From a virus (taxonomy: Monodnaviria > Loebvirae > Hofneiviricota > Faserviricetes > Tubulavirales > Inoviridae): a stretch of 11,250 bases of DNA. The notes under the pieces are model-generated. The model did not search any database. It worked only from the letters and a program-made list of their open reading frames with translations, and was not told where the DNA came from. Positions within the stretch are counted from its first letter, which is position 1. Each line of letters opens with the position of its first letter. The translations under genes were made by a program, and so were the position numbers. Below, in pieces: positions 1 to 11,250 of this stretch. The stretch is taken from IMG/VR virus record IMGVR_UViG_2663763400_000001, one strand, 5' to 3'.

Positions 1-258
1 ATGCGCTTTGAAGGGAATGCTTCTACAAGGAAATCTATTCAACAACGTCTTAAGCAGGCTTCAGATGCACGAGCTCAGGAAGTCGCCGGTAGCGAAGTGC
101 TTTACTCCGGTGATGCCAACCTGACTGATGAACAGATCGCTAAATTACCTTTTGCGTTATATCGCCAGGGCTACGAGTACTACTGGAAAACCCACGCACA
201 CCCAAACATATTCAGAAGCGTGAGGGATATAGTGCCATCAAAGCGCTGGCTGCTGTAA
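1..258 (+). CDS. Hypothetical protein (85 aa as given; begins at the window edge, so the true start may lie upstream); chromosomal flank outside the prophage
   Basis: Open frame from ATG at position 1 to TAA at 256-258. The product is not recognisable by eye. It lies outside the dif-bounded element. Confidence 0.35.
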   Translation: MRFEGNASTRKSIQQRLKQASDARAQEVAGSEVLYSGDANLTDEQIAKLPFALYRQGYEYYWKTHAHPNIFRSVRDIVPSKRWLL

Positions 259-410
259 ACAACGCAATTATCCAACTCATGGTCTATGGTGTGCCATCAC
301 TGAACAGAGGTTGAATTTTTCTACCGAAACGGGAGGGAAGTCAGAAATCACAACGTATTGATTTATCTGTGTGTGGATGTGAATGGTGAAGTAAAGGACC
401 TTCACAGGCA

Positions 411-438
411 ATTTAACATAATATACATTATGCGCACC
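411..438 (-). other. dif: dif chromosome-dimer resolution site (XerC/XerD target), serving as the left prophage junction
   Basis: Plus strand reads ATTTAACATAATATACATTATGCGCACC, the exact reverse complement of the 28-bp E. coli dif sequence as I recall it (GGTGCGCATAA-TGTATA-TTATGTTAAAT). XerD arm 411-421, central region 422-427, XerC arm 428-438. Confidence 0.85.
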
Positions 439-565
439 AATGGTAAGGATGGCAGAATCTGGCGGGAATCGTTGACACTGGCCGTCAACTGGCTACTATC
501 GACAGTGATTCAAAATCATCCGTTTCTCCAAACGAATCAGAATCAAATGTCTGTCAGCAGTAAGT

Positions 566-597
566 GAACGGCCTGACCTCACCAATCAGGCCTGTTC
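566..597. repeat. Imperfect inverted repeat (about 11-bp stem, 9-nt loop) overlapping the stop codon of the 579..827 ORF
   Basis: GAACGGCCTGA (566-576), loop cctcaccaa, TCAGGCCTGTTC (586-597). The arms are complementary apart from one bulged base. No clear U-tract follows on either strand. Confidence 0.35.
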
Positions 598-788
598 ATC
601 CAGTTAGTTGGTAAATCTGTACCTGATACACGAGAATCAAACACCACTTCTTCAGTGCCATCACCATGATGCCGGATAATCTGGTAACCGGATTGCGGGT
701 TCTGGCTCTCAGCTTCATAAGCAGCCCGGAATGCTGGATCTTTAAGAAGCATCACTTTCAGCTCCTGATGTGTCATGAATTTTTCCAT
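579..788 (-). CDS. Hypothetical small protein (69 aa from ATG at 786-788; the longest ORF extends to 827, 82 aa)
   Basis: Minus-strand ORF with product MEKFMTHQELKVMLLKDPAFRAAYEAESQ... The ATG at 788 has a weak GGGG Shine-Dalgarno 6 nt upstream, while the ATG at 827 has none. No family recognised. Confidence 0.4.
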   Translation of the reverse strand: MEKFMTHQELKVMLLKDPAFRAAYEAESQNPQSGYQIIRHHGDGTEEVVFDSRVSGTDLPTNWMNRPDW

Positions 789-972
789 GATAAGCCCCGA
801 TGAATGCTGCCGCGCCGAATCAGCCATAACGCTGAAAATGGAAACTGTACGGCTTGGCCAACCCCGGACAGCAACAAAACAAGTTTTGTCACTGACCGGC
901 GTTATCTTTCAAAACAGACAGTTAACGATTTTTTGTCTGGTGTTTATGCGTGAAATTTCGTGCGTACGAAAT

Positions 973-1221
973 TCACCACCAATAAACAAACGGACGATGA
1001 CTGACCGGAAAAGCAATGCCGTCAGCATCATGACCACGCATTACCTGATTGAGAAGCCTTCTGACTTCACGACGCTCAGGCCTGGTCATCATCATATTGC
1101 GATACCAGGACGGCGATTTATCAAACCATCTGGCACAACTGGCAAAATGTGAACCTACACGACGATAAGACTTAAGGCGGCCACCGGGAAGTCGGTCACG
1201 CGCCTTATTTTTTACAGACAT
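973..1221 (-). CDS. Hypothetical small, strongly basic (Arg-rich) protein, 82 aa
   Basis: Minus-strand ORF immediately downstream of the secretin gene, preceded by an AGAGGA Shine-Dalgarno 6 nt upstream of the ATG at 1219-1221. It is co-oriented with the phage operon. The overlapping + strand ORF 775..1152 has no ribosome-binding site. Confidence 0.4.
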   Translation of the reverse strand: MSVKNKARDRLPGGRLKSYRRVGSHFASCARWFDKSPSWYRNMMMTRPERREVRRLLNQVMRGHDADGIAFPVSHRPFVYWW

Positions 1222-1309
1222 AATAAATCCTCTAAGTAACTGAATACCTAGAAGATGTCGTACTGTTCATACCCCATAAAAGTTAACGCCATAATAAAAA
1301 TCCATACAA

Positions 1310-2554
1310 TCAGTTCAGGTTGTCCCGGAACAGTTCACCGCTCCTCGCGGCGCTGCGGGGCGTCGCCCTGCTCCGGTCAACCTTTCTGACCTGAAGCATC
1401 ACCATAATATCAGTCTTGTTGCTTTCACTGGTACGGGAACCGAAGAAGCTCCAGCCGGAACTGGCCTTACTGTCTTTCTGTTCAGCAAGGCCACCAAGTA
1501 AAATAATATCACCATCTGCAAGGCTGACTTCGGTTGTTACATCACGCTTGATAAGGGTTGGCGAGTTATTGACGCCGGTTTCAGTGGTCACAAAGTTGGA
1601 AAGCTGCTGCTGAATCTTGAGATCCATTGTCCGACTTTTGATTGATGGCGTCACGTTAAACAAAACACCGCTGGAACGATATTCAACGGATTGCGTTGTC
1701 GTATTGTTATTCACCGTAACACTGCCCAGTACTGGCACATCAGAGCCGACTGAAAAAGACGCTGAGGCATTATTTTTTACCCGCAGTCGTGGCGCACTGA
1801 CAACAGTAAAACGACTGTCGGTTTTCAGCAGATTGAAAATGGCATCAATGGAGCCGGTTCGAATATTGATAAAATTATCCAGTCCGGCAGCACCAACTGA
1901 AATATTGAATTTATCAGACAGAATTTTAGCCGCTAAAAGAATGCCGGAGCCGTCAGACTGCGAGGTCTGAACCTCAAAAACATAACCAGAAACAACCACT
2001 TCATCACTCATCGTATCCAGCGAAGTGACCAGTGTTTTCAGGATGGCGATATCCTCTTTCGTACCATAATAAACCAGAATATCACCGGTTCGATTGATGT
2101 AGTTGCTTGCCCCTGATGAACCTTTTAGCGAATCGTCAGAAATCACGGCTCCACTGTTATTGAAGGAGCCTGAAACGTAGCCGCCAAGAATATCAGACAG
2201 GTAGGCAACAGAACGGTACTGAGGCGTATAAGTCCATGTATAACGTGGCTTAACCGGCTCTTTCGGCGTATAGGGCGCGATAAAATCAACACCCTTTTTC
2301 GTCCATATTCGAATGTTCATATTGCCAAGATAACGGGTTACAAATTCCCGTTCATCAATATCAGGTGTTAACCTGAATGTAATCATTCGTTCATCATTAA
2401 CAAGCTGTGGATCTAGCATATACGGGACTTTAAGCACCTCACTGTAAATAAGAGAAATAGCCTCCGGTAGCTTGACTTTATTTAATTCAAGCTCTGACCC
2501 TGCGAAAGCACATGAAGAAAATAGTAGCGTTAATGCGAGTAAAATCTTTTTCAT
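1310..2554 (-). CDS. Filamentous-phage secretin (pIV-like outer-membrane export channel), 414 aa
   Basis: N-terminal signal peptide MKKILLALTLLFSSCAFAGS. The C-terminal region has a secretin-like Gly/Ser-rich segment (DGDIILLGGLAEQKDSKASSGWSFFGSR...). The start codon overlaps the stop of the upstream Zot-like gene (TAATG at 2552-2556). Position matches gene IV of Ff phages. Confidence 0.85.
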   Translation of the reverse strand: MKKILLALTLLFSSCAFAGSELELNKVKLPEAISLIYSEVLKVPYMLDPQLVNDERMITFRLTPDIDEREFVTRYLGNMNIRIWTKKGVDFIAPYTPKEPVKPRYTWTYTPQYRSVAYLSDILGGYVSGSFNNSGAVISDDSLKGSSGASNYINRTGDILVYYGTKEDIAILKTLVTSLDTMSDEVVVSGYVFEVQTSQSDGSGILLAAKILSDKFNISVGAAGLDNFINIRTGSIDAIFNLLKTDSRFTVVSAPRLRVKNNASASFSVGSDVPVLGSVTVNNNTTTQSVEYRSSGVLFNVTPSIKSRTMDLKIQQQLSNFVTTETGVNNSPTLIKRDVTTEVSLADGDIILLGGLAEQKDSKASSGWSFFGSRTSESNKTDIMVMLQVRKVDRSRATPRSAARSGELFRDNLN

Positions 2555-3579
2555 TATTTTTTCCCCGTATAAAGCGTCACACGCTCACCATCAATAATTC
2601 CGCTCATCAACATCCCTTTGTAATTAAAACTGGATGCAGGAACGGCACGCAAAACACCGGCACCATTAACAAGAATCACAAACGCCCTGCCTTCACTGGT
2701 CATTCTCCCTGATATACGCCACTCGGTTGAAAGTGGCGGTTCAGCTGGTTCTGAGGGAGTATCTGGTGCTGGAGTAGCAGCGGAAGAACGAAACATGGCC
2801 GCATCACGTACATCTGTTGTAGTCAAATCTGGCGAGGGATCGCTTCGGCCAAACGTGCTGAAAAATGAGTAAATCAGCCAGCCTGACCCGATAAACATCA
2901 ATGGAAAAAGCACAAGAAAGAACCTGACTTTGCCAGAATTCCAGATGCTCTGGCGTTTATCTGTCTGCTTTTCATTACCGTTATTTCCTTCATAACTTTT
3001 GTAAAGTTCAAAAATATCAGGGTTATATTTATTGCGATAACTGGTGACGAGGTTGCTTTTATAGATTTTGTGGCCTGAATATACGTCAATGCAGTAATGA
3101 TTATTCAGGCCCAACGCTTTCAGCTTGCGCATCCGGTAAGTTGTTTCTATTTTGTCTTTCAGAAAGCGAGCAATATTAGAAAGTGACTGATTTACAATAA
3201 CCAAATCACAGCTAATACCCGTTTCAGGGTGCGTAAAATGACGATGTTCAGCAATAAATGATTTCTTCTCAGCCGTCATATCCTTATCGCTACCGAAGAT
3301 TCGCCATGCTTCATCAATAACAATTAAATCACCAAACTGGCAAAAGCTCCCTTCCCCACCTTTAAAAGGAAAGAAATCTGCTTTAAGCACATCATCATTA
3401 TCCACAACAATAATTTCTCCCGTTGCATCAGGATAACGTTCGGTGATTTTATCTTTTTGTAAACCATAAATGTTCGTCACAACTCTCCGGCCGCTGGTAA
3501 ATGCCGGAATAATGACATTGCAAACGGCTTCATAACTTTTTCCTGAGCCGGGTATGCCAATATATGCAGAAATAGCCAT
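2554..3579 (-). CDS. Zot/pI-like phage assembly ATPase (zonula occludens toxin family), 341 aa
   Basis: N-terminal Walker A motif (MAISAYIGIPGSGKS), a Walker-B-like hydrophobic stretch ending in DE (LIVIDEAW) and a central transmembrane segment (FFLVLFPLMFIGSGWLIYSFF). This is the architecture of Ff gene I and Zot proteins. It sits directly upstream of the secretin gene. Confidence 0.9.
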   Translation of the reverse strand: MAISAYIGIPGSGKSYEAVCNVIIPAFTSGRRVVTNIYGLQKDKITERYPDATGEIIVVDNDDVLKADFFPFKGGEGSFCQFGDLIVIDEAWRIFGSDKDMTAEKKSFIAEHRHFTHPETGISCDLVIVNQSLSNIARFLKDKIETTYRMRKLKALGLNNHYCIDVYSGHKIYKSNLVTSYRNKYNPDIFELYKSYEGNNGNEKQTDKRQSIWNSGKVRFFLVLFPLMFIGSGWLIYSFFSTFGRSDPSPDLTTTDVRDAAMFRSSAATPAPDTPSEPAEPPLSTEWRISGRMTSEGRAFVILVNGAGVLRAVPASSFNYKGMLMSGIIDGERVTLYTGKK

Positions 3580-3582
3580 AAC

Positions 3583-3870
3583 TCACCCTATAACAGGAAT
3601 ACGTCGAATAATAAAACGAGTAGCCATTGCGGAGATAATCATACTAATCCCCTGTGGTAATTTACTCAGGTTAATGAAGTACCAGAATCCGTCTGATAAA
3701 TTGGCAAACAGCGATGAGAGATTGCTTGAATCTGGCAGTAACTCAACAAGGATTTCAACGAAGCCCTGGACTACAAAATACAGCGCAAAGAATACGACGA
3801 ATTTAATAATCAATGACCGGAATACAAAACCTAACAAAGTATTTAATGCACTAATCAGAATCCCAAACAT
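3583..3870 (-). CDS. pVI-like minor coat / membrane protein, 95 aa
   Basis: Very hydrophobic small protein encoded between the pIII-like gene and the Zot-like gene, the position of gene VI in Ff phages. Strong AAGGAG Shine-Dalgarno 7 nt upstream of the ATG at 3868-3870. Confidence 0.55.
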   Translation of the reverse strand: MFGILISALNTLLGFVFRSLIIKFVVFFALYFVVQGFVEILVELLPDSSNLSSLFANLSDGFWYFINLSKLPQGISMIISAMATRFIIRRIPVIG

Positions 3871-3882
3871 AGTTGCACTCCT

Positions 3883-5595
3883 TTAGGCACTCAGAATAAT
3901 ACGGAGCGCAACAAATCCCCATATAATCAGAAATATGGTTTCTACGGCGCTTCTGTTCTGCTCAATTAACGGACAATGGGAGTCAATTCTGTACTGGTGA
4001 TTAAACACGCTGAATTCAACAACGGGGCAGGATGCTGAACGAGAGCCGATGTTAAATTCGTTTGTAAAAGGCAACAAGTTAATAATTGGCGTTAAAATAT
4101 CTCTTGCCGTTGGCGTTTCTTCAAGCTCAGGCTCTTTTACACCGGGATCTTCTCCCAAATCTATATTGCCATTATTTCCAGTGTCAGATCCTGAGTTGTT
4201 ATTAATGGTAATATCAATATTGACGTCAGCCCCTGCACTGTCAGATACAGGTGAAAGCATATCTAATAACGTTGGAGATAGCCTAAGTTCCGACATCGCA
4301 GAAGTTACTTCAGCCGGTGAAACCTCTTTAAACGGTAAGCCGTTATAATCGGCATTAACGGCAGCTTCAGACCACAGCTCGTTAATCATGTCGGCAAGAA
4401 GTGCTGGCGATACACTAACACTATCAAGATACTCCAGATAATCAATCATGGACTCAATATTTCCAGCCTCCAGTACTTCCGTCATGGCTTTATATTTGGT
4501 ATTGGTCCAGATAGTAAGCTCACTCTTTTCATCAATATCTTTTGCGGTGTAATCCTCTTTTTCAGGAACGGCACAAATCGTCGAATATCCACCATTTGAC
4601 TGATTAGTCGTTTTACAAGGCGTGTTGTGATACTGATATTGCTTTCCTGCTGTTAAATAAGCAACGCTGTAATACATGGGAAGCCCTGCTACATTTTCAT
4701 ACATGGGAATACCTGCGGGAAATGAAGATGCGGCCGGGTTGCTATACAAGTGTGTAATCTCAGGTATTTCATAAAATGAGGAAGGATAAGTAAACTTATA
4801 ATTCTGTTCAGTAAAGGATACATCTCCATTACTGTTGACAACTTTATTCGTCACAGTGCGTTCAAAATTCGTTAGTGTTTCAGTATAAGTACGCGAGTTA
4901 TAGTCATTAAGATAATTTCTGGCAATTTCAGTTGGATTATCACCATAGTAATAAATTAGCTCTTTCGAATCCTGATAATAATAAAGTGCATTATCTGGCG
5001 TGGAATATCCTGTTTCAACACCTACAACTGGAGAACCCGCATCCACATTATTACGACTAACATGAAGGATTACCGGACTTAATTCCTGTGGTTCAAAATT
5101 AACGGTTATCGTCTTACTTTCACCACTTTGACCACTGTACGTTACTTCATATAAATTATCGGAAATCTTTTTACCGTTAGTCATTACCATTACCGAGCCG
5201 TCAGATGAACTCAAAGAAGACGGAACAAAAGATGATACAGCAGCAGCAATACCCGCCCACGTTGCAACACCGCTCATTTTGTATGATGAGGCAGCAGGCA
5301 AGTATTCGGCAGCATTAGCCGCAGCGCGGCCAACAAAAACACGGGTTGCTGTAAGCTGTGATGCCGTATAAATCGCATCATTGGCAGCAAAGCGACGAAC
5401 AAGCACCCGGCCAACGACTTTAGGAATAACAGCCCGCGCAGCCACTGCTGCAATTGCTGGTACAAATGAATATGAATATCGGGGAAAGGAAACCCAGAGA
5501 AAGGAAAAAATAAAGGAATAAACCGTCAGCCTCTTAGCCCAAGAATAACGACATAAGCTGAGACGATCCCCCATAAAAGGGAACCCAATTTCCAT
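3883..5595 (-). CDS. pIII-like minor coat / host-adsorption protein (start codon uncertain; longest ORF 570 aa)
   Basis: Large ORF after the major coat gene with Gly/Ser/Asn-rich linker segments (for example NNNSGSDTGNNGNIDLGEDPGVKEPELEETP) and a C-terminal hydrophobic anchor (IFLIIWGFVALRIILSA), as in Ff pIII. The ATG at 5595 has GGAG 8 nt upstream. An alternative start at 5277 precedes a signal-peptide-like segment (MSGVATWAGIAAAVSSFV). Confidence 0.6.
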   Translation of the reverse strand: MEIGFPFMGDRLSLCRYSWAKRLTVYSFIFSFLWVSFPRYSYSFVPAIAAVAARAVIPKVVGRVLVRRFAANDAIYTASQLTATRVFVGRAAANAAEYLPAASSYKMSGVATWAGIAAAVSSFVPSSLSSSDGSVMVMTNGKKISDNLYEVTYSGQSGESKTITVNFEPQELSPVILHVSRNNVDAGSPVVGVETGYSTPDNALYYYQDSKELIYYYGDNPTEIARNYLNDYNSRTYTETLTNFERTVTNKVVNSNGDVSFTEQNYKFTYPSSFYEIPEITHLYSNPAASSFPAGIPMYENVAGLPMYYSVAYLTAGKQYQYHNTPCKTTNQSNGGYSTICAVPEKEDYTAKDIDEKSELTIWTNTKYKAMTEVLEAGNIESMIDYLEYLDSVSVSPALLADMINELWSEAAVNADYNGLPFKEVSPAEVTSAMSELRLSPTLLDMLSPVSDSAGADVNIDITINNNSGSDTGNNGNIDLGEDPGVKEPELEETPTARDILTPIINLLPFTNEFNIGSRSASCPVVEFSVFNHQYRIDSHCPLIEQNRSAVETIFLIIWGFVALRIILSA

Positions 5596-5618
5596 AATTC
5601 AATCTCCATAATAACCTC

Positions 5619-5646
5619 AAGTAAAACGGGCGATATTGCATCGCCC
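5619..5646 (-). terminator. Candidate intrinsic terminator or attenuator between the major coat gene and the pIII-like gene
   Basis: On the minus strand, GGGCGAT-GCAAT-ATCGCCC (7-bp GC-rich stem, 5628-5646) is followed by GUUUUACUU. Its position matches the known terminator downstream of gene VIII in Ff phages. Confidence 0.4.
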
Positions 5647-5659
5647 ATGAATAATGAAT

Positions 5660-5893
5660 TTATGCGGATTTAACGGTACGCAATACCCAGCGAACGCCAG
5701 CGACACCGGCATAAAGTGTTACCAGTGAAGCAGCAACGGCCATAATCGCAACCAGAACTGTACTGAAATCAATGCTGTTCGTCAGCGGCGATAAATCAAC
5801 ACCACTTGATGCCGCTCCTTCTGCAGCGAAAGTCGCGCCAGAAACAGCCATTAATGCAGGTACAGCCAGAAAACTAACGATTTTTTTAAACAT
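5660..5893 (-). CDS. Major coat protein (pVIII-like) precursor, 77 aa
   Basis: Signal peptide MFKKIVSFLAVPALMAVSGATFA, then a mature protein starting AEG... with an acidic N-terminus, a hydrophobic transmembrane core and a basic C-terminus (RWVLRTVKSA). This is the hallmark layout of inovirus major coat proteins; the M13 mature pVIII also starts AEG. GGAG ribosome-binding site 8 nt upstream. Confidence 0.8.
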   Translation of the reverse strand: MFKKIVSFLAVPALMAVSGATFAAEGAASSGVDLSPLTNSIDFSTVLVAIMAVAASLVTLYAGVAGVRWVLRTVKSA

Positions 5894-5927
5894 AACTCTA
5901 TCTCCATTACATTTTAAAGGTTCGCAT

Positions 5928-6179
5928 TCAAGCAGTACGAACCATCTTTATTACCTGTCCCACACCTACAGAAAAAAGCCAGAGCAGCAGGACAGAGCCA
6001 AAACCTAATGTCCAGTAATTTCCCATTGCAGAATAATCAATTTGATGAAATGGTTCAGAACGTACCATTATTGCCTGACATTCTTTTGCATTGTTCGCAT
6101 TACATAAATAACCTTCAATACGGTAACCATTTTCAGGAATATGATTATCAAACTGAATATCGAAACCTGATGCATCCAT
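5928..6179 (-). CDS. Small membrane protein, 83 aa, in the position of Ff minor coat proteins pVII/pIX
   Basis: ORF between the putative ssDNA-binding gene and the major coat gene. It has a C-terminal hydrophobic helix (YWTLGFGSVLLLWLFSVGVGQVI). The start is tightly spaced after the upstream stop (TGATTATG). Confidence 0.5.
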   Translation of the reverse strand: MDASGFDIQFDNHIPENGYRIEGYLCNANNAKECQAIMVRSEPFHQIDYSAMGNYWTLGFGSVLLLWLFSVGVGQVIKMVRTA

Positions 6180-6181
6180 AA

Positions 6182-6499
6182 TCAGCCTTTTATTTCAGTA
6201 ATGCCGCCATCTGATGAAATGTTATAAGTTACTCCTTCCCTCCCCTCCATTGACCAGACGCGAACATATACAGGTATCTGGACTAACTTACCGATAAAAT
6301 TATTTGCCTGATTCATTACACCGGCATTAACAAGAGCCTGAGATACACGAATAATAATCTGGTCTTGCTTAGTGCCGCCAAAACCATCAGGAATCTCTAA
6401 GCCAACACCAATTTCATTATAGTATCCCTGACCATTGACCTTATTACGCTGGCGAGCACCAAGCATTTTACCTTTTACAAAAAGACCATAATTAGACAT
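6182..6499 (-). CDS. Putative ssDNA-binding protein (gene V equivalent, by position and size), 105 aa
   Basis: Small ORF immediately downstream of the replication initiator gene, with a strong AAGGAG Shine-Dalgarno that overlaps the initiator stop codon. The assignment is positional; I could not confirm sequence similarity to Ff gV by eye. Confidence 0.45.
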   Translation of the reverse strand: MSNYGLFVKGKMLGARQRNKVNGQGYYNEIGVGLEIPDGFGGTKQDQIIIRVSQALVNAGVMNQANNFIGKLVQIPVYVRVWSMEGREGVTYNISSDGGITEIKG

Positions 6500-6510
6500 A
6501 TCACTCTCCT

Positions 6511-7563
6511 TTAATGCCAGTTACTGGCATGTGAAATACGGTTATAATCGAAAATTAAACCTTTCTCATAAACCCATGATGGAATTTTGGCTGGTTTGGC
6601 TTCAAGAGTACGAACCAACGGAACAACGTTATTAGAATCCGGTGACTCACAATAAAAGTTAATATCTATTCCGAAAGAAAGTAATTCTTTACGGTGTCGG
6701 TAGAATGTAGGTTTCGGTAACATCTCTTTCATGTTCGCGCCCTGCTTCCACAATAAATATGTAGACTGTATTTTTCTTGGGAGATTAATTATTTTTTCAT
6801 CAGTTAATATAGTATTTTGATTCATTTCTATTCTCCCTACATAGTCAGAGAATAATTTATTGGGCGTCTCAATATTCCAGCTATTACCAAGCGTAAGATT
6901 CAAATCAATTAATTCAGTTGTTCTTAATGTTAATTCAATGCGTAATTTATCTTTTGACCAGTCCAGTAAACCAGCTTTAACGAATTCGTCTGCCATCTGG
7001 TGCCCTTTTTTGCCAGATGTATGCTCATCATATTTTGAATAAAATTTCAGGCTCCAACGACGGGAGTTTTTCCCTAAGTAAACAGTGCCACCTTTACCAC
7101 AGGCGCGACCGTGGCGAGTTTTAGCTTTAAATTCTGCGGCATATAACCATGCGCGGACATTTTCTAATGTTGACAATGAATACATGTAATTGATATCGAT
7201 GCGCGAGATCTTAAATTGCCCTTCCATGACCTGCCGATAGGATGGTAGATCATGAGGAATATGCAGTAATGCCAATATTCTGGCGTAAGCTGTTAACACC
7301 AACCCTTGCAAATCGTCGGAACCGATAACAGAGTGACCTTGCAAAAACTTTGATGGATTACCGTCAATGTAGAGATGTGTTGCCCGACCTTCACCATCAG
7401 ATCCAACAGACCTTACTTTCATTGTGGACTCATGCGAACCGCGAACGGTCAACCGTTTTACTGTTTCCCACTCCACTGCACCGTCAGCATCGACGCTGAC
7501 GACACTACCAGCCGGTAACGGTCGGTGTGTGCAAGGCAGGATTCCGGTAAACCAGTCGATCAT
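6511..7563 (-). CDS. Rolling-circle replication initiation protein (pII / RstA-like), 350 aa
   Basis: First gene of the minus-strand phage operon, about 350 aa with N-terminus MIDWFTGILP... Size, position and divergent arrangement with an HTH repressor match the replication initiators of integrating filamentous phages. Confidence 0.75.
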   Translation of the reverse strand: MIDWFTGILPCTHRPLPAGSVVSVDADGAVEWETVKRLTVRGSHESTMKVRSVGSDGEGRATHLYIDGNPSKFLQGHSVIGSDDLQGLVLTAYARILALLHIPHDLPSYRQVMEGQFKISRIDINYMYSLSTLENVRAWLYAAEFKAKTRHGRACGKGGTVYLGKNSRRWSLKFYSKYDEHTSGKKGHQMADEFVKAGLLDWSKDKLRIELTLRTTELIDLNLTLGNSWNIETPNKLFSDYVGRIEMNQNTILTDEKIINLPRKIQSTYLLWKQGANMKEMLPKPTFYRHRKELLSFGIDINFYCESPDSNNVVPLVRTLEAKPAKIPSWVYEKGLIFDYNRISHASNWH

Positions 7564-7734
7564 AAGTAGTCACACCCATCAAAATATGTGTCAATAGTCA
7601 TTTGTGAGCAGATTGAATGGTCACAATGTAATATGCTCAGTTCTGACAGTCAATACATTTGCAATGTTTAAATTGTCAGAAATGAGCATCAAATCTAACT
7701 ATTGAAAAACCACTGTTAAGATGGAGCCAAGTAG
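7564..7734. promoter_or_regulatory. Divergent intergenic control region between the replication gene and the repressor gene (candidate promoters and operators)
   Basis: Non-coding 171-bp AT-rich spacer. The minus strand has a candidate sigma70 promoter toward the replication gene (-35 TTGACT at 7653-7648, 17-bp spacer, -10 TACATT at 7630-7625). The + strand has a TG-TAATAT element at 7627-7634. Repeated GTCAATA (7590-7596, 7649-7655) and TGTCA/TGACA motifs are present. Confidence 0.5.
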
Positions 7735-8181
7735 ATGGGCAACAATGAGCATGAAGTTATGGCGGACAAACAGAGAGCAGAACGTATCAAAAAGGTAATT
7801 CTGGAACACTCGACTTATGAAGAACTGGCCGAGAAGACTGGCATTAGCGTGAGTACGCTGGTCAGGATAGCGTCCGGCAAAACTGAACCTAAATTCAGTG
7901 ACATCATTCAGATAGCTAAAATTACGGGTGCAGACTTAAACACCTTAGCTTATGGCTATGCTCTTGATGTTAAAGAAGAAGCTACCGAGCGGAAGCTAAT
8001 CACTTCTGCGGATGGATATACTGATGAAGAAACCACTAACGCACATAATTTCATCGTGTGGAACATCAGGACACTGGAAAAACAAGATATTCTGGCACTC
8101 GCAAGGCAGGTTTCTGCCTTAAGTTCATACACTTACAGTACTAAAATGTTTATGAAAAAAGCGGTGTCTGGAGAAGAGTAA
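7735..8181 (+). CDS. XRE-family helix-turn-helix transcriptional regulator (phage repressor, RstR-like), 148 aa
   Basis: Contains a Cro/C1-type HTH (YEELAEKTGISVSTLVRIASGKT...IAKITGADLNTLAYG). Transcribed divergently from the replication initiator. GGAG ribosome-binding site 8 nt upstream of the ATG at 7735. Confidence 0.8.
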   Translation: MGNNEHEVMADKQRAERIKKVILEHSTYEELAEKTGISVSTLVRIASGKTEPKFSDIIQIAKITGADLNTLAYGYALDVKEEATERKLITSADGYTDEETTNAHNFIVWNIRTLEKQDILALARQVSALSSYTYSTKMFMKKAVSGEE

Positions 8182-8210
8182 AAGGATTAACAGTCTCAGG
8201 AATGAGACAA

Positions 8211-8246
8211 ACGTGCAGTATTACCAACACTGCACGTTCTTTATTG
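8211..8246 (+). terminator. Candidate intrinsic terminator downstream of the repressor gene
   Basis: ACGTGCAGT (8211-8219), 9-nt loop, ACTGCACGT (8229-8237), followed by TCTTTATTG. Confidence 0.4.
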
Positions 8247-8280
8247 TGCGAATTTTGAACAGTGAAAAAGGATCAAAAGG

Positions 8281-8703
8281 ATGAGTAGAAATAACGAAAC
8301 AAGCGGCGTTGAACTGGTTGTCGTGGGCGTATTTGCTTTCTGTCTGGCAGTTGTTGCCTGGCTAATGAAAACTTTCGATGTTGAATGGCAAACAGCGCTG
8401 GAAACTGCGCCTGGCCTGATAGTGTGGCTGCTTGTTGTCGGGGCGGGGATCTTTTTCGGGATCAAAATGGAAACAGGCCTTGTTCGCTGGGGTGCTCCAC
8501 TGGCGATCGCCCTTCTGATTCCGGTATTCAAACCAATTCTTAAGGAAGCTGCCGGAGTTCGTGAAACGGGTGGGCTGGTTTTCGATGATATGGTTTCGTG
8601 GTACGGAACTGGCTGGGGAATGTCGTTGATGTTTTTCGGAATTCTTATCATCGGATACGGGATGCTTTATTGGTGGCACAGAAGAAATTCATATTACTGG
8701 TAA
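8281..8703 (+). CDS. Hypothetical polytopic inner-membrane protein, 140 aa (cargo gene 1)
   Basis: About four hydrophobic helices (VELVVVGVFAFCLAVVAWLM, GLIVWLLVVGAGIFFGI, APLAIALLIPVF, MSLMFFGILIIGYGMLYWW). AAGGA ribosome-binding site 8 nt upstream. The antisense ORFs 8241..8651 and 8362..8679 are Pro/Ser/Thr/Arg-rich, typical of the reverse strand of a hydrophobic gene. Confidence 0.6.
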   Translation: MSRNNETSGVELVVVGVFAFCLAVVAWLMKTFDVEWQTALETAPGLIVWLLVVGAGIFFGIKMETGLVRWGAPLAIALLIPVFKPILKEAAGVRETGGLVFDDMVSWYGTGWGMSLMFFGILIIGYGMLYWWHRRNSYYW

Positions 8704-8731
8704 TCAATAAAACGTAGAAGAGAGGAAATAT

Positions 8732-9007
8732 ATGAAACTGAATCCTGAGAAATACAATAGAAATATCACCCTGCTATGTCCTGTGTGCGGAAATACAGAG
8801 ATGGAACACGAGGAAGAGTCTGAAGTCGTCAGATGTGTAGGCTGCGGGAAAGAATTCACTAATGATGAGTTAATCCAAGAAAACGGGGTGAGTATTGACG
8901 CCCATGTGGATGAGATAAAAGAAGAGTTAACAAAAGATATTCAAAAACAGTTTAACGACATGCTCAAAAAGGCATTTAAAGGAAGTAAAAATATAAGGAT
9001 TAAATAA
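8732..9007 (+). CDS. Hypothetical zinc-ribbon protein, 91 aa (cargo gene 2)
   Basis: CPVCG and CVGCG motifs 17 residues apart (CxxC-x17-CxxC), followed by an acidic/Lys-rich tail. AGAGGA Shine-Dalgarno upstream of the ATG at 8732. AT-rich codon usage. Confidence 0.6.
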   Translation: MKLNPEKYNRNITLLCPVCGNTEMEHEEESEVVRCVGCGKEFTNDELIQENGVSIDAHVDEIKEELTKDIQKQFNDMLKKAFKGSKNIRIK

Positions 9008-9486
9008 TGACAACAAGTGATGCCATCGCTTTAGCTGCGCTTGTAGTATCGATTTACACTATCATATCATCAGAAGTGAAGTCGAGAAAAAGTGATAGAG
9101 AACAAAAGGTTATAAAGGATGAGCAAGACAGATTACGTAAGTTGCTTCTGGAAAAAGAAACAAAGTCAGCAATTAATGAGATGAAGGCTGAGCTTGGTGC
9201 CCGCCTCGTAAAAATAGCCAAAAACAACTATAGACTCAAGATATTTAATAGAGGGAAAGTTGAGGCTAAAAATATAGAGATTCATTTCCCTGATAACGAT
9301 GGCAATGAATATCTTTCCATGCATGATGTAGAAGATAAATTTCCATATGAAGTATTACACCCGCAACATGGGATTGAAATTTTAGCGGGACTAAGCTTTG
9401 GAAGCAAAACTAAATACCGAATAAAACTCATATGGGATGACAATTATAAAAAAAGGAATGAAGAGGAGTTTTTCATTTCTATATAA
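9007..9486 (+). CDS. Hypothetical membrane-anchored protein with a charged coiled-coil-like segment, 159 aa (cargo gene 3)
   Basis: The start overlaps the upstream stop as TAATG (9005-9009). N-terminal hydrophobic anchor (AIALAALVVSIYTIIS), then a highly charged K/E/R-rich helical segment, then a C-terminal region rich in aromatic and beta-type residues. Visibly AT-rich. Confidence 0.6.
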   Translation: MTTSDAIALAALVVSIYTIISSEVKSRKSDREQKVIKDEQDRLRKLLLEKETKSAINEMKAELGARLVKIAKNNYRLKIFNRGKVEAKNIEIHFPDNDGNEYLSMHDVEDKFPYEVLHPQHGIEILAGLSFGSKTKYRIKLIWDDNYKKRNEEEFFISI

Positions 9487-9516
9487 ATTGGTTCGCACAA
9501 TGACGTTATGCTAAAG

Positions 9517-9553
9517 AGGCCGCTGCGGGATACGATTTTCGCAGCGGCCTTTT
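9517..9553 (+). terminator. Candidate intrinsic terminator of the + strand cargo operon, directly abutting the right junction site
   Basis: AGGCCGCTGCG (9517-9527), 12-nt loop, CGCAGCGGCCT (9540-9550), followed by TTT. It is flanked upstream by AAAG, so it could act in both directions. Confidence 0.5.
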
Positions 9554-9583
9554 CAACATAACGAGTCGTACATTATGCGCACC
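9552..9583 (-). other. Hybrid dif-like site forming the right prophage junction: dif XerC arm plus a phage-derived expanded central region and XerD-like arm
   Basis: In dif orientation it reads GGTGCGCATAA (perfect XerC arm, 9583-9573), then TGTACGACTCG (11 bp instead of the 6-bp TGTATA), then TTATGTTGAAA (9 of 11 identical to the dif XerD arm TTATGTTAAAT). It shares 15 contiguous nt with the true dif at 424-438. Confidence 0.65.
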
Positions 9584-9661
9584 AACATAAACCAAGGGAG
9601 AATCCAGTCGTTGGCGGTTCATGATTGTTCTGCTCATTAACAACGACCAAAACCCCATATC

Positions 9662-10984
9662 TTACTTAATACCGTATTCTCGGCTTAACCGACCGTGCAA
9701 CCTCAACACATTGGTTTCAACTGCCGTCACCACGTTCTCCGGAAAATCTGTCGGTAATGAAGTCTTCACGTTATCCAGTGCTGCCGGAATCATTCTGGCA
9801 AAGTCACTCAGGATTTCATGCATCTGCACTTCCGGGAATTTCAGCACCTTTGCTGTCGCCAGAAAATGTCGCGGATAAATTTTATCGATTGCCGTTTTTT
9901 TGCCTTTGGATGCGTTAAGCCCCATTGCCAGTTTGAGATCGCTGATGTGTATTCCCGTACCGCCAAGGACCGGAAATGCCGAAATGATGTCATAAAATGG
10001 TGTGAGCCGATAACTGCCGCCAGCCTGAATAAATACGGAGAAGTTTTTTGCATGGCCATCTGTTGCGCCAATCAACCACTGGAAGACCTGAAACTTCATA
10101 AAATCATAGCGATCTTTCAGCGCCTCGCTGGACCCCATCAAAAAAGCCATAATTTGCGCGATACCGGGGCCTCCATCTGATTCATATTTCACCGATGAAG
10201 GTAAACCGAATGTCTGGCACATATCCTCCTGTGGCAAGCGAAGTAAAACCGTTCGCTCAGTATTCCAACGCCTGTCAAAACGTTTGACCGCTAACGCGCG
10301 CACCCTTCCCGCTTTAATGATTTCTGCGTCCGGAACATTCAACCCGAGTTCTTTCGCCAGCAGCAAACAGTAATACTCATTATCAACGCTTTGGCTAAGA
10401 TCGAGCGTCGCATTGGGCTGTCTGATTTCGCCAATCGGCAATTTGATAATGTGCGTCGTTGGCGTTATTCCCTTCGGAATGCACCAGTCATTGCCTATTC
10501 TGAGCAGCGCAGTCTTCTCCTGTGCGCCAGCAACCGAGATGCGAAAGTCATTTTCTTCTCTAATCATGCCTAACGGGATATCTGCTTTATAAGCCGTTAA
10601 TACTTCTTCAAGTCTGGCTTCAGTAAGCTTTTCCCATGCCATTATCGGACACATTACGGTTTCATCTTCGGGGATTAACGTCACGGCACCAACGCTGTCT
10701 CGCCCTATTTCTGACAATAAATCAAACGGTTGTCTGGATTTAGCATGATAACGTTTAACGATCCGGTCACGTACAATCGGGCTATCGGGTAACAGGTTAT
10801 CGAAGAAGTTAAATACGGCATCAGAGGTGATATTCCTCCTCTGCAATGGCAGCGAAAGTGACAACGGTCTGGCATAACGGCTGGCTAACCACTCAGGTGC
10901 ATACTTAAAGGTGTGCGCGCCGTTGGCTAACTTCGTTAACTCGCCTACCCGCTGGTTGTTCATCCAAGTGACTAGTTTAGGCAT
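9662..10984 (-). CDS. hipA: HipA serine/threonine kinase toxin of the HipBA type II toxin-antitoxin system, 440 aa
   Basis: From the ATG at 10982-10984 the product MPKLVTWMNNQRVGELTKLANGAHTFKYAPEWLASRYARPLSLSLPLQR... matches E. coli HipA essentially along its length, from memory. The start overlaps the hipB stop by 1 nt. The longer ORF reaching 11041 is an upstream in-frame extension into hipB. Confidence 0.95.
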   Translation of the reverse strand: MPKLVTWMNNQRVGELTKLANGAHTFKYAPEWLASRYARPLSLSLPLQRRNITSDAVFNFFDNLLPDSPIVRDRIVKRYHAKSRQPFDLLSEIGRDSVGAVTLIPEDETVMCPIMAWEKLTEARLEEVLTAYKADIPLGMIREENDFRISVAGAQEKTALLRIGNDWCIPKGITPTTHIIKLPIGEIRQPNATLDLSQSVDNEYYCLLLAKELGLNVPDAEIIKAGRVRALAVKRFDRRWNTERTVLLRLPQEDMCQTFGLPSSVKYESDGGPGIAQIMAFLMGSSEALKDRYDFMKFQVFQWLIGATDGHAKNFSVFIQAGGSYRLTPFYDIISAFPVLGGTGIHISDLKLAMGLNASKGKKTAIDKIYPRHFLATAKVLKFPEVQMHEILSDFARMIPAALDNVKTSLPTDFPENVVTAVETNVLRLHGRLSREYGIK

Positions 10985-11250
10985 CACCACTCCAGATCTT
11001 GCTGTTCTGTTGCTTCTGGCGAGGCATTTTTTGCGTCGCATAGCGTCATTGAGAGTTCAAGCGACTGTAAAATCTTAAAAAATGTCGTGAGCGAGGTATT
11101 GTTAGGATTGTTTTCGAAATTGGAAATTGTCGCCTGCTTAATGCCGATTTTTTTCGCCAACTCGCTCTGCGTCCAGCCGTTTTGCTGGCGAACCAGTTTC
11201 ATTGCATTCGCCAATTGCATTGGGCTATAGATCTTCTGAAAGCTCATCAT
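10984..11250 (-). CDS. hipB: HipB antitoxin / HTH transcriptional repressor, 88 aa
   Basis: Product MMSFQKIYSPMQLANAMKLVRQQNGWTQSELAKKIGIKQATISNFENN... matches E. coli HipB (XRE-family HTH), from memory. The start codon lies at the window edge (11248-11250); the promoter and operators are beyond the window. Confidence 0.95.
   Translation of the reverse strand: MMSFQKIYSPMQLANAMKLVRQQNGWTQSELAKKIGIKQATISNFENNPNNTSLTTFFKILQSLELSMTLCDAKNASPEATEQQDLEW

Follow-up and report, generated by a model that had tools for sequence, protein, structure and literature searches.

A CUS-1/YpfPhi-lineage filamentous prophage at dif of Escherichia coli AH21E028 and its variable accessory slot

The window analysed here, a stretch of 11,250 nucleotides (IMG/VR record IMGVR_UViG_2663763400_000001), is 100% identical to positions 242,879–254,128 of the chromosome of Escherichia coli AH21E028, a blood isolate from Melbourne. 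It contains an element of 9,145 bp (439–9583) at the chromosomal dif site beside hipA. With high confidence, this element is a single intact prophage of the CUS-1/YpfPhi lineage of filamentous phages that integrated as single-stranded DNA (ssDNA) in the manner of CTXphi. To the left lies a small hypothetical gene, itself preceded by a gene for an SDR oxidoreductase, and the right flank holds hipA (9662–10984 as annotated) and hipB. Routine annotation names the prophage genes 'GspD', 'zonular occludens toxin' or hypotheticals and does not label them as phage. Positions refer to the window unless the number of a comparison locus (L) is given.

Organization of the locus

The phage genes are located on the minus strand and the divergent repressor on the plus strand. 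E-values are given in brackets.

6511–7563, minus strand: gII, rolling-circle replication initiator (Rep), 350 amino acids (aa) (PF05144, 1.2e-73; PF05155, 3.6e-34)
6511–6825, minus strand: gene X, nested in gII, 104 aa; starts at Rep residue 247, behind GGGAG
6182–6499, minus strand: gV, ssDNA-binding protein, 105 aa (PF17426, 1.2e-52)
5928–6179, minus strand: orf83, membrane protein of 83 aa in the gVII/gIX position (PHROG 3679, 1e-32)
5660–5893, minus strand: gVIII, major coat protein, 77 aa, with signal peptide (PHROG 2186 'virion structural protein', 4e-29)
3883–5595, minus strand: gIII-type adsorption protein, maximal open reading frame (ORF) of 570 aa (PHROG 3942, 4.5e-253)
3583–3870, minus strand: gVI-type minor coat protein, 95 aa (DUF2523, PF10734, 1e-20)
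2554–3579, minus strand: gI, Zot-family assembly ATPase, 341 aa (PF05707, 2.2e-26)
1310–2554, minus strand: gIV, outer-membrane secretin for virion export, 414 aa (PF00263, 1.3e-24)
7735–8181, plus strand: divergent HTH_3 (Cro/C1-type) repressor (PF01381, 1.6e-9), 100% identical in YpfPhi

A first-pass annotation of this DNA had claimed a complete inovirus gene set in canonical order, and matches to Pfam and PHROG from gII to gIV, including the repressor, confirm this. The replication genes gII, nested gene X and gV are accompanied by the coat protein, the gIII-type and gVI-type proteins and the Zot-family gI in order, and by the gIV secretin. Gene X begins at the same Rep residue (247) as the annotated gene X of the E. 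coli inovirus I2-2. The stop codon of gI and the start codon of gIV overlap as TAATG at 2552–2556, as had been noted before.

The hydrophobic segment of orf83 is located at the C-terminus, and the position of the gene suggests a gVII/gIX-type function. The match of gVIII to Pfam Phage_Coat_B (1.6e-3) is under the family cut-off. For the gIII-type ORF, RefSeq sets the start at GTG 5445, which gives a product of 520 aa. A Pfam scan of the gIII-type protein yielded no match; it is 99.6% identical to its counterpart in YpfPhi, the related phage of Yersinia pestis. Its genomic position is that of puvA in CUS-1, described as a virion protein binding the host receptor (PMC4266046); this equivalence is one of position in that review, not of aligned sequence. 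The secretin gIV matches PHROG 1012 ('protein IV of M13', 8e-138) and is 100% identical to the YpfPhi protein. YpfPhi carries an RstR-like repressor gene (PMC4266046), and the repressor of the window most likely is the gene called YPO2273, a homologue of RstR, in that review. Behind the repressor, the plus strand contains three ORFs of 140, 91 and 159 aa.

Among the 14 ORFs scanned (Pfam, PHROGs, NCBIfam and PADLOC), none has a match among the families of integrases, transposases or other recombinases (0/14), in agreement with the first-pass annotation. In this respect the element 439–9583 conforms to the integrative mobile elements exploiting Xer (IMEX), which have no recombinase of their own.

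Insertion at dif

The element is bounded by a perfect dif on the left and by two dif-like sites of opposite orientation on the right.

411–438, minus strand: regenerated chromosomal dif (XerD arm 411–421, centre 422–427, XerC arm 428–438)
9490–9516, plus strand: attP2, inverted dif-like site, GGTTCGCACAA TGACG TTATGCTAAAG, 5-nt spacer
9517–9550, no strand assigned: GC-rich hairpin at the tip of the attP(+) stem, also terminator-shaped, behind the cargo genes
9551–9583, minus strand: attP1, hybrid with dif, GGTGCGCATAA TGTACGACTCG TTATGTTGAAA

The perfect E. coli dif 28-mer (GGTGCGCATAATGTATATTATGTTAAAT) occurs once in the window, at 411–438 on the minus strand with 0 mismatches. With up to three mismatches allowed, the window contains no second match and 0 of 200 shuffled sequences matched. 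A looser Xer-site pattern (XerC arm, 5–12 nt, XerD-like arm) matches exactly two sites, 412–438 and 9552–9583, both on the minus strand and thus in direct orientation (0/200 shuffles). The right-hand match reads GGTGCGCATAA-TGTACGACTCG-TTATGTTGAA in the same orientation as the dif at 411–438, and its boundaries were set at 9551–9583 in a degenerate Xer-site scan. The XerC arm of this site, attP1, is that of dif, the XerD arm is degenerate and the spacer comprises 11 nt. The perfect dif and the direct orientation proposed in the first-pass annotation hold, whereas the proposed 28-bp hybrid dif on the right does not.

An empty site was constructed in silico by joining 241–438 (left flank and dif) to 9584–9719. 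This query of 334 nt has an unbroken match of 100% identity in many strains, among them Nissle 1917 and ATCC 11775; the first-pass annotation had suggested a comparison with strains whose dif beside hipA is empty. At a coverage of at least 80%, 802 genomes match. The flanks join exactly at one dif in the empty-site genomes, and the inserted unit is therefore 439–9583 (9,145 bp). Insertion is exact at the chromosomal dif, with dif or dif-like sites on either side and one dif restored. Judged by its sequence, the restored dif at 411–438 should be functional.

Relation to CUS-1 and YpfPhi

When the Zot protein was scanned against one genome per species, the sole locus returned was that of Y. pestis NCTC5923. 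A tandemly repeated element is present there, with the same flanking sites as the unit in the window. The nucleotide identity to the window is 99.7% over 424–8261 (7,839 nt) and 98–99% over 9486–9585. The core proteins of the window and YpfPhi are 98.8–100% identical; on account of its host, its locus, its genes and its tandem repetition, the NCTC5923 element is taken as YpfPhi. A prophage at the same locus of E. coli UTI89 is 99.5% identical to the window over 1–8704 and 99.9% identical over 9488–11250, and is taken as the published CUS-1. UTI89 is presumably an O18:K1:H7 strain and thus belongs to the group in which CUS-1 was described.

A core of 7.1 kb is 99% identical between CUS-1 and YpfPhi, which are distinguished by two ORFs at one end (PMC4266046). 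The unit in the window fits this pattern, with about 99% identity over the core of about 7 kb and variable end ORFs. Both phages integrate at dif, regenerate dif, carry inverted XerC/XerD sites and occur as tandem repeats of 2–4 copies; furthermore, YpfPhi forms particles and infects E. coli (PMC4266046). The lineage is already described, for CUS-1 in E. coli O18:K1:H7 by Gonzalez et al. 2002 and for YpfPhi by Derbise et al. 2007 and Chouikha et al. 2010 (cited in PMC4266046), and the biology of both phages was published in 2002–2014. The first-pass annotation had assigned the element to the dif prophages of Y. pestis and extraintestinal E. coli and its core ORFs to inoviruses. Both assignments are borne out, by the identity of the core to YpfPhi and the same prophage in UTI89 and, for the ORFs, by Pfam and PHROG matches as well.

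The attP region and integration

The inverted site attP2 had been overlooked in the first-pass annotation. The degenerate Xer-site scan recovered it in the window and in every relative examined, and its orientation is opposite to that of attP1. The phage (+) strand corresponds to the minus strand of the window, which is the coding and therefore the packaged strand. Folded as DNA over 9480–9595, it is predicted to form a forked hairpin with a ΔG of −30.5 kcal/mol (z = −6.94), and 0 of 200 shuffles were as stable. In the predicted stem, the XerC-type arms pair with each other and so do the XerD-type arms, while the 11-nt and 5-nt spacers form a bulge. A forked (+) ssDNA hairpin with a non-complementary centre, built from two inverted dif-like sites, is the arrangement of the CTXphi type. 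The spacer of attP1 begins with TGTACG and that of dif with TGTATA. The first four nucleotides (TGTA) are common, and the bases by the XerC cleavage point are able to pair with dif after the exchange, as in CTXphi-type integration.

In CTXphi El Tor, the attP sites have spacers of 12 and 7 nt, and the rule of pairing next to XerC has been published. YpfPhi and CUS-1Phi are listed as CTXphi-type ssDNA integrators (PMC4246890, PMC3089051). The class is characterized by an ssDNA substrate, a XerC-first exchange that is completed by replication, irreversible integration and rolling-circle phage production (PMC4246890, PMC3089051).

Following this scheme, the packaged (+) strand would fold attP1 (9583–9551) on attP2 (9516–9490). 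The resulting forked hairpin would present one XerC arm and one XerD arm with a bulged, non-complementary centre. Host XerC would exchange one strand pair with dif, aided by the TGTA shared beside the cleavage point. The exchange would take place at ^ between the (+) strand, 5'-GGTGCGCATAA^TGTACG, and the top strand of dif, 5'-GGTGCGCATAA^TGTATA, and the four shared bases could stabilise the exchanged strand. The chromosomal XerC arm and the phage spacer would thereby give the site 9551–9583 beside hipA, and the phage XerC arm with the chromosomal spacer and XerD arm would give the perfect dif at 411–438. XerD would be unable to finish the reaction, and replication would resolve the junction. 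The expected products are a new perfect dif at 411–438 and, on the other side, the succession of attP2, hairpin and attP1, which would be inert as a duplex. With spacers of 11 nt and 5 nt, attP1 and attP2 should be unfit for Xer as duplexes; Xer excision is thus not expected and integration should be irreversible. New genomes would arise when gII drives rolling-circle replication, either on an episome or across tandem copies, and would be exported through the Zot ATPase and the secretin of the phage itself. XerC catalysis, irreversibility and replication from tandem copies are assumed here by analogy with the work on CTXphi and YpfPhi.

Copy number and alternative explanations

AH21E028 contains a single copy of the prophage. 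The strain FDAARGOS_1303 carries three head-to-tail copies of the 439–9583 unit (L002, 700–28150), which are 100% identical and have a period of 9,145 bp. At the internal junctions, attP1 is fused directly to the sequence from position 439, which is the junction of the circular genome, and a perfect dif is present at the far left of the array only. According to RefSeq, gVI (DUF2523) is frameshifted in the middle copy; the copies are otherwise identical. A contig of 9,159 bp from the SRA run SRR11612990 (L017) comprises one circularly permuted unit with a terminal overlap of 13 nt across the attP1–439 junction, as expected of either a replicative form or a tandem array that collapsed during assembly. 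Of the 5,426 complete E. coli genomes, 99 (1.8%) contain the core at a coverage of at least 80%; it is often repeated in tandem, and core-positive genomes have a median of 2 matching places. Two- or three-copy arrays occur in several E. coli strains. The multi-copy arrays and the circularly permuted contig indicate that the lineage is active.

Several points weigh against an intact prophage of the CTXphi type. A megablast search of 411–9584 against 50,697 phage records gave no match, because the lineage has been deposited only inside bacterial chromosomes. The evidence for the assignments of gIII and orf83 consists of position and PHROG membership. Even for YpfPhi, the dependence on XerC is called 'proposed' (PMC4266046). 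Furthermore, YpfPhi transduced into laboratory E. coli mostly stays extrachromosomal (PMC4266046), so that the efficiency of integration in E. coli is not established. Finally, the CTX model predicts that a prophage present in one copy gives no phage from the chromosome. Of the functional phage postulated in the first-pass annotation, the intact genes are thus confirmed, while virion production is in doubt, since CTX-type prophages need tandem copies; the prophage of AH21E028 may be unable to make phage from the chromosome. Nothing in the sequence contradicts the proposed explanation.

The single copy also raises the tentative possibility of a domesticated, locked-in prophage with intact genes, i.e. 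a fixed island that is kept for cargo expressed in the lysogen and never makes virions. Such a state would agree with the published requirement of CTX-type prophages for tandem copies or a helper and with the irreversibility of their integration. Decayed remnants of related elements, comprising cargo and attP, are found in Lonsdalea and behind the prophage of strain GON1437. On the other hand, all ORFs are intact and highly similar (98.8–100%) to those of YpfPhi, for which particles and infection of E. coli are on record (PMC4266046), and the arrays of two or three copies and the permuted contig speak for an active lineage. Locking-in is a statement about one copy as it is now; it fits with an intact CUS-1/YpfPhi-lineage prophage and does not replace this explanation.

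A VGJphi-type IMEX is improbable. In this type, a duplex attP of 28–29 bp recombines with dif via XerC, and excision is possible through the flanking sites. The direct repeats at 411–438 and 9551–9583 with their identical XerC arms would suit such an element, and the first-pass annotation had put CTXphi and VGJphi together. However, the right-hand spacer has 11 nt as compared to 6–7 nt, the XerD arm is degenerate, and the adjoining inverted site and hairpin are predicted to fold into a CTX-type fork. A paired inverted site thus takes the place of the single duplex attP (about 29 bp, 7-bp centre) that marks this type, and YpfPhi and CUS-1Phi are classed with CTXphi in print. The hijacking of host Xer claimed earlier would therefore follow the CTXphi type (attP2 and the forked fold) and not the VGJphi type. 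That a genomic island without phage integration lies beside dif by chance, with a chance dif-like repeat, is an a-priori possibility alone and is refuted by the base-precise insertion relative to hundreds of empty-site genomes, by the absence of the sites from shuffles, by the same unit with the same flanking sites in Y. pestis and by the complete inovirus gene set.

The accessory slot

Three genes follow the repressor on the plus strand.

8281–8703, plus strand: orf140, several hydrophobic segments (PHROG 4174, 3e-85)
8732–9007, plus strand: orf91, ECs_2282-family CxxC zinc ribbon (NF047912, 3.6e-18)
9007–9486, plus strand: orf159, N-terminal helix and immunoglobulin (Ig)-like beta-sandwich (predicted structure)

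The hydrophobic segments suggest that orf140 encodes a multi-pass membrane protein. It has no match in Pfam or PADLOC, and a tblastn search against the YpfPhi locus found nothing; it is present in E. coli and Salmonella relatives and absent from YpfPhi. The stop codon of orf91 and the start codon of orf159 overlap as ATAATG. The AlphaFold model of orf159 (pLDDT 88) consists of a long N-terminal helix followed by the Ig-like sandwich, and the protein is predicted to be membrane-anchored. A Foldseek search of the PDB with this model returned only generic Ig-like sandwiches (best E-value 2e-3), and tblastn of orf159 against phage records returned nothing. PADLOC, Pfam and NCBIfam gave nothing for the cargo beyond the name of the zinc-ribbon family and a weak, partial match to PADLOC PDC-S64 (4e-7). 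The GC content is 35.6% in the cargo and 42.3% in the core.

The similarity to YpfPhi ends at 8261, just past the terminator hairpin of the repressor (8210–8238), and resumes at 9486. The similarity to UTI89 and to strain D8 ends at 8704–8708 and resumes at 9486–9488. These latter breaks place the variable slot between orf140 and attP2. At its left boundary, the similarity to the other variants simply stops at or just after the stop codon of orf140. A cassette resembling a pdif module with two Xer sites was considered and rejected; there is no Xer-type site at the left boundary (8704–8731). At least five versions of the slot exist.

AH21E028 (window): orf91 and orf159; 28 of 5,426 complete E. 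coli genomes
UTI89 (L003, 11811–12920): one ORF of 369 aa; 10 complete E. coli genomes
D8 (L005, 10141–11212): DpnII/MboI-type nuclease of 264 aa (PADLOC Aga_Helical-REase, 1e-34) and DUF6953; 24 genomes
Z1323CEC0001 (L014, 11959–12722): a different regulator, followed by two unassigned ORFs
YpfPhi (Y. pestis): ORFs of 135 and 87 aa
A20, a mosaic relative from a bat isolate (L015, 11644–12949): ThsB-like TIR protein (3e-48) and PDC-M50A (8e-32)

Several of these versions look like anti-phage defence genes. The repressor, orf140, orf91 and orf159 are all located on the strand opposite to the phage genes. From this position on the repressor strand, the cargo is probably expressed in the lysogen, together with the repressor and orf140. 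In Vibrio, filamentous prophages have already been described as carrying variable, defence-enriched loci at their borders beside the regulator; a defence slot extends this known biology and is not new in itself.

The block formed by the terminator, orf140, orf91, orf159 and attP is 95.5% identical in Salmonella contigs (L016, L018). There, it is joined to a Rep gene of only 80% identity and to an unrelated structural module. The block is shared despite differing Rep and structural modules, which indicates that the lysogeny and cargo block is exchanged between inovirus lineages. The unrelated structural module of the Salmonella contigs and of E. coli A20 (L015) comprises Phage_coatGP8, a gIII of the IKe type (G3P_pilus-bind), DUF5455 and a longer secretin.

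Lonsdalea quercina (L019, 8180–9552) contains a remnant with about 90% identity and without phage structural genes. It consists of a stretch resembling the dif region, the repressor terminator, a shortened homologue of orf91, orf159 and a degenerate attP2-hairpin sequence, and appears to be a decayed relative that retained only the cargo.

Relation to ISKpn21-like insertion sequences

Distant homologues of orf91 and orf159 (about 68–70% nucleotide identity) are located directly behind a transposase of 466 aa in Klebsiella contigs and in Serratia. The order at the Klebsiella loci is left inverted repeat, transposase, orf89, orf159, orf127, a site identical to attP2, a GC hairpin, TTTTCAACATA and the right inverted repeat. 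The 75 nt of attP2, hairpin and TTTTCAACATA are 96% identical to 9486–9560 of the window. Across contexts (L009–L012, 8899–8972; L004, 13317–13390; L006, 2501–2571), the attP2-hairpin sequence is 93–96% identical, and the homologous cargo about 68%. In L009 a 5-bp duplication (AAGTA) borders the unit on both sides; the unit, including the Xer-like site, thus transposed in one piece. According to published descriptions, ISKpn21 and its relatives of the IS1202 family have their insertion points 5 bp away from the XerC arm of dif and pdif sites, with the left end towards the arm, and ISKpn21-type insertion sequences (IS) sometimes carry passenger genes. The elements found here agree with these descriptions.

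In E. coli GON1437 (L004, 10641–13445), an ISKpn21-like element with a degraded transposase lies between the right-hand site of the prophage and hipA. Its left inverted repeat begins 5 bp past the XerC arm of that site. The element is flanked by the 5-mers AAAAT and AACAT, the latter being the sequence of the empty site. The locus thus shows a phage integrated at dif with an insertion sequence that targets dif right beside it. A SIR2 gene (PDC-S25, 2e-82) precedes the sequence of attP2, hairpin and right repeat; it was considered as phage cargo and rejected, since it is located inside the separate ISKpn21-like element.

The attP2-hairpin segment is also found behind an AbiJ-like gene on large plasmids. 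Short as it is, the segment has about 470 matching places on plasmids of the E. coli collection. In Serratia proteamaculans (L013, 3606–14449), the unit of transposase, orf91 and orf159 is about 4 kb from a perfect dif. The neighbours of this unit include AIPR, SMODS with S_4TM, and HNH genes, forming a dif-proximal region rich in defence genes.

By sequence, two unrelated kinds of element that dwell at dif share the segment of cargo and attP2. It is possible, though doubtful, that 8704–9550 is a module exchangeable between inoviruses of the CUS-1/Ypf type and ISKpn21-like insertion sequences, that in enterobacterial inoviruses the slot is a hot spot of anti-phage defence genes expressed in the lysogen, and that orf91 and orf159 form an undescribed pair for defence or exclusion. 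The link to insertion sequences and the function of the orf91/orf159 pair would be the potentially new parts of this study, and the cargo variant and this link might be the only parts worth further work. The slot-plus-attP2 sequence is present in dif-targeting insertion sequences on hundreds of IncF-size plasmids, which may explain how small phages swap cargo.

Further DNA features

Four features of the DNA lie outside the genes described above.

439–1309, minus strand: region of 871 nt downstream of gIV, intergenic in type, with two small ORFs
5626–5648, minus strand: terminator-like hairpin directly after gVIII, stem of 10 pairs and T run
7633–7689, no strand assigned: palindrome in the divergent intergenic region of gII and the repressor, 27-nt arms (81% complementary), 3-nt loop
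8210–8238, plus strand: terminator-like hairpin behind the repressor, 13-nt arms (92% complementary)

The two small ORFs (579–776 and 973–1221, minus strand) are hypothetical in RefSeq and 98–100% identical in YpfPhi; a match to PHROG 6642 is present for 579–776 only. Their position beside the regenerated dif suggests that they are YPO2280a and YPO2281 of the YpfPhi review. They may be protein-coding or merely overlap packaging or origin structures. The (+)-strand ssDNA fold of the 439–1309 region has a z-score of −4.96. Hairpins are found at 860–903 and 1227–1256; the latter immediately follows gIV, which is the place of the morphogenetic signal in I2-2. The region is therefore likely to hold the packaging signal, the origin or both.

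The hairpin after gVIII presumably corresponds to the arrangement in Ff phages. The palindrome at 7633–7689 is a candidate for the repressor operator, the origin or both, and promoter-like hexamers are present on the minus strand at 7653–7625 and 7719–7692. Scans of the window for promoters and terminators showed no enrichment over shuffled sequence and were used solely for the two hairpins with sensible positions. An Rfam scan of the window found no RNA family.

Comparison with known systems

Most of the biology of the element is known from CUS-1 and YpfPhi: integrase-free integration at dif, an ssDNA attP of the CTX type, arrays of tandem copies and modest effects on fitness, the latter in the setting of extraintestinal E. 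coli and plague. The present analysis shows that a Xer-exploiting filamentous prophage is recognisable from raw sequence.

I2-2 (Lineavirus I22), a non-integrating E. coli inovirus, is the nearest cultured phage; tblastn with Rep against phage records returned I2-2 and one distant virus only. The identities are 57.8% for gII/X, 42% for gV and 28% for gIV, and there is no detectable similarity between I2-2 and gIII, gVI, gVIII and gI of the window. The similarity is thus not genome-wide, as it would be within Lineavirus (I2-2/IKe), and is confined to gII, gV and part of gIV. The relationship to I2-2 is accordingly one of a single module rather than of the phage as a whole, and the proposal of I2-2 as a relative in the first-pass annotation applies to the replication module and not to the rest. 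Moreover, a repressor, cargo and Xer sites are absent from the annotation of the I2-2 record.

The ISKpn21-like transporter insertion sequences (IS1202 family, ISAba32 subgroup) likewise exploit dif, and variants of them share homologues of orf91 and orf159 and the attP2-hairpin sequence with the prophage. They differ by a DDE transposase, inverted repeats, a 5-bp target duplication and the lack of phage genes, and the right inverted repeat replaces the counterpart of attP1.

With CTXphi of Vibrio cholerae, the prototype of the CTX-type IMEX, the prophage has in common the lack of an integrase, the inverted dif-like sites folding into a (+) ssDNA fork, the regeneration of dif, tandem arrays, a divergent RstR-like repressor and the long spacer of attP1 (12 nt in El Tor, 11 nt here). 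This likeness is one of described architecture rather than of compared sequence. In contrast to CTXphi, which relies on a host secretin, the element in the window encodes its own; its replication module is I2-2-like and its cargo on the repressor side is not a toxin.

YpfPhi shares the core, the attP region (98–99%), integration at dif and the tandem arrangement. It differs in its host species, Y. pestis, and in the replacement of 8262–9485 by the ORFs of 135 and 87 aa, so that orf140, orf91 and orf159 are missing. CUS-1 of UTI89 agrees with the prophage in organization: the species, the dif/hipA locus, the gene order, the repressor, orf140 and both attP sites are the same. Between orf140 and attP2, CUS-1 has the single ORF of 369 aa (PHROG 17621), whereas the window has orf91 and orf159. 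Only this cassette of accessory genes sets the AH21E028 copy apart from the published copies.

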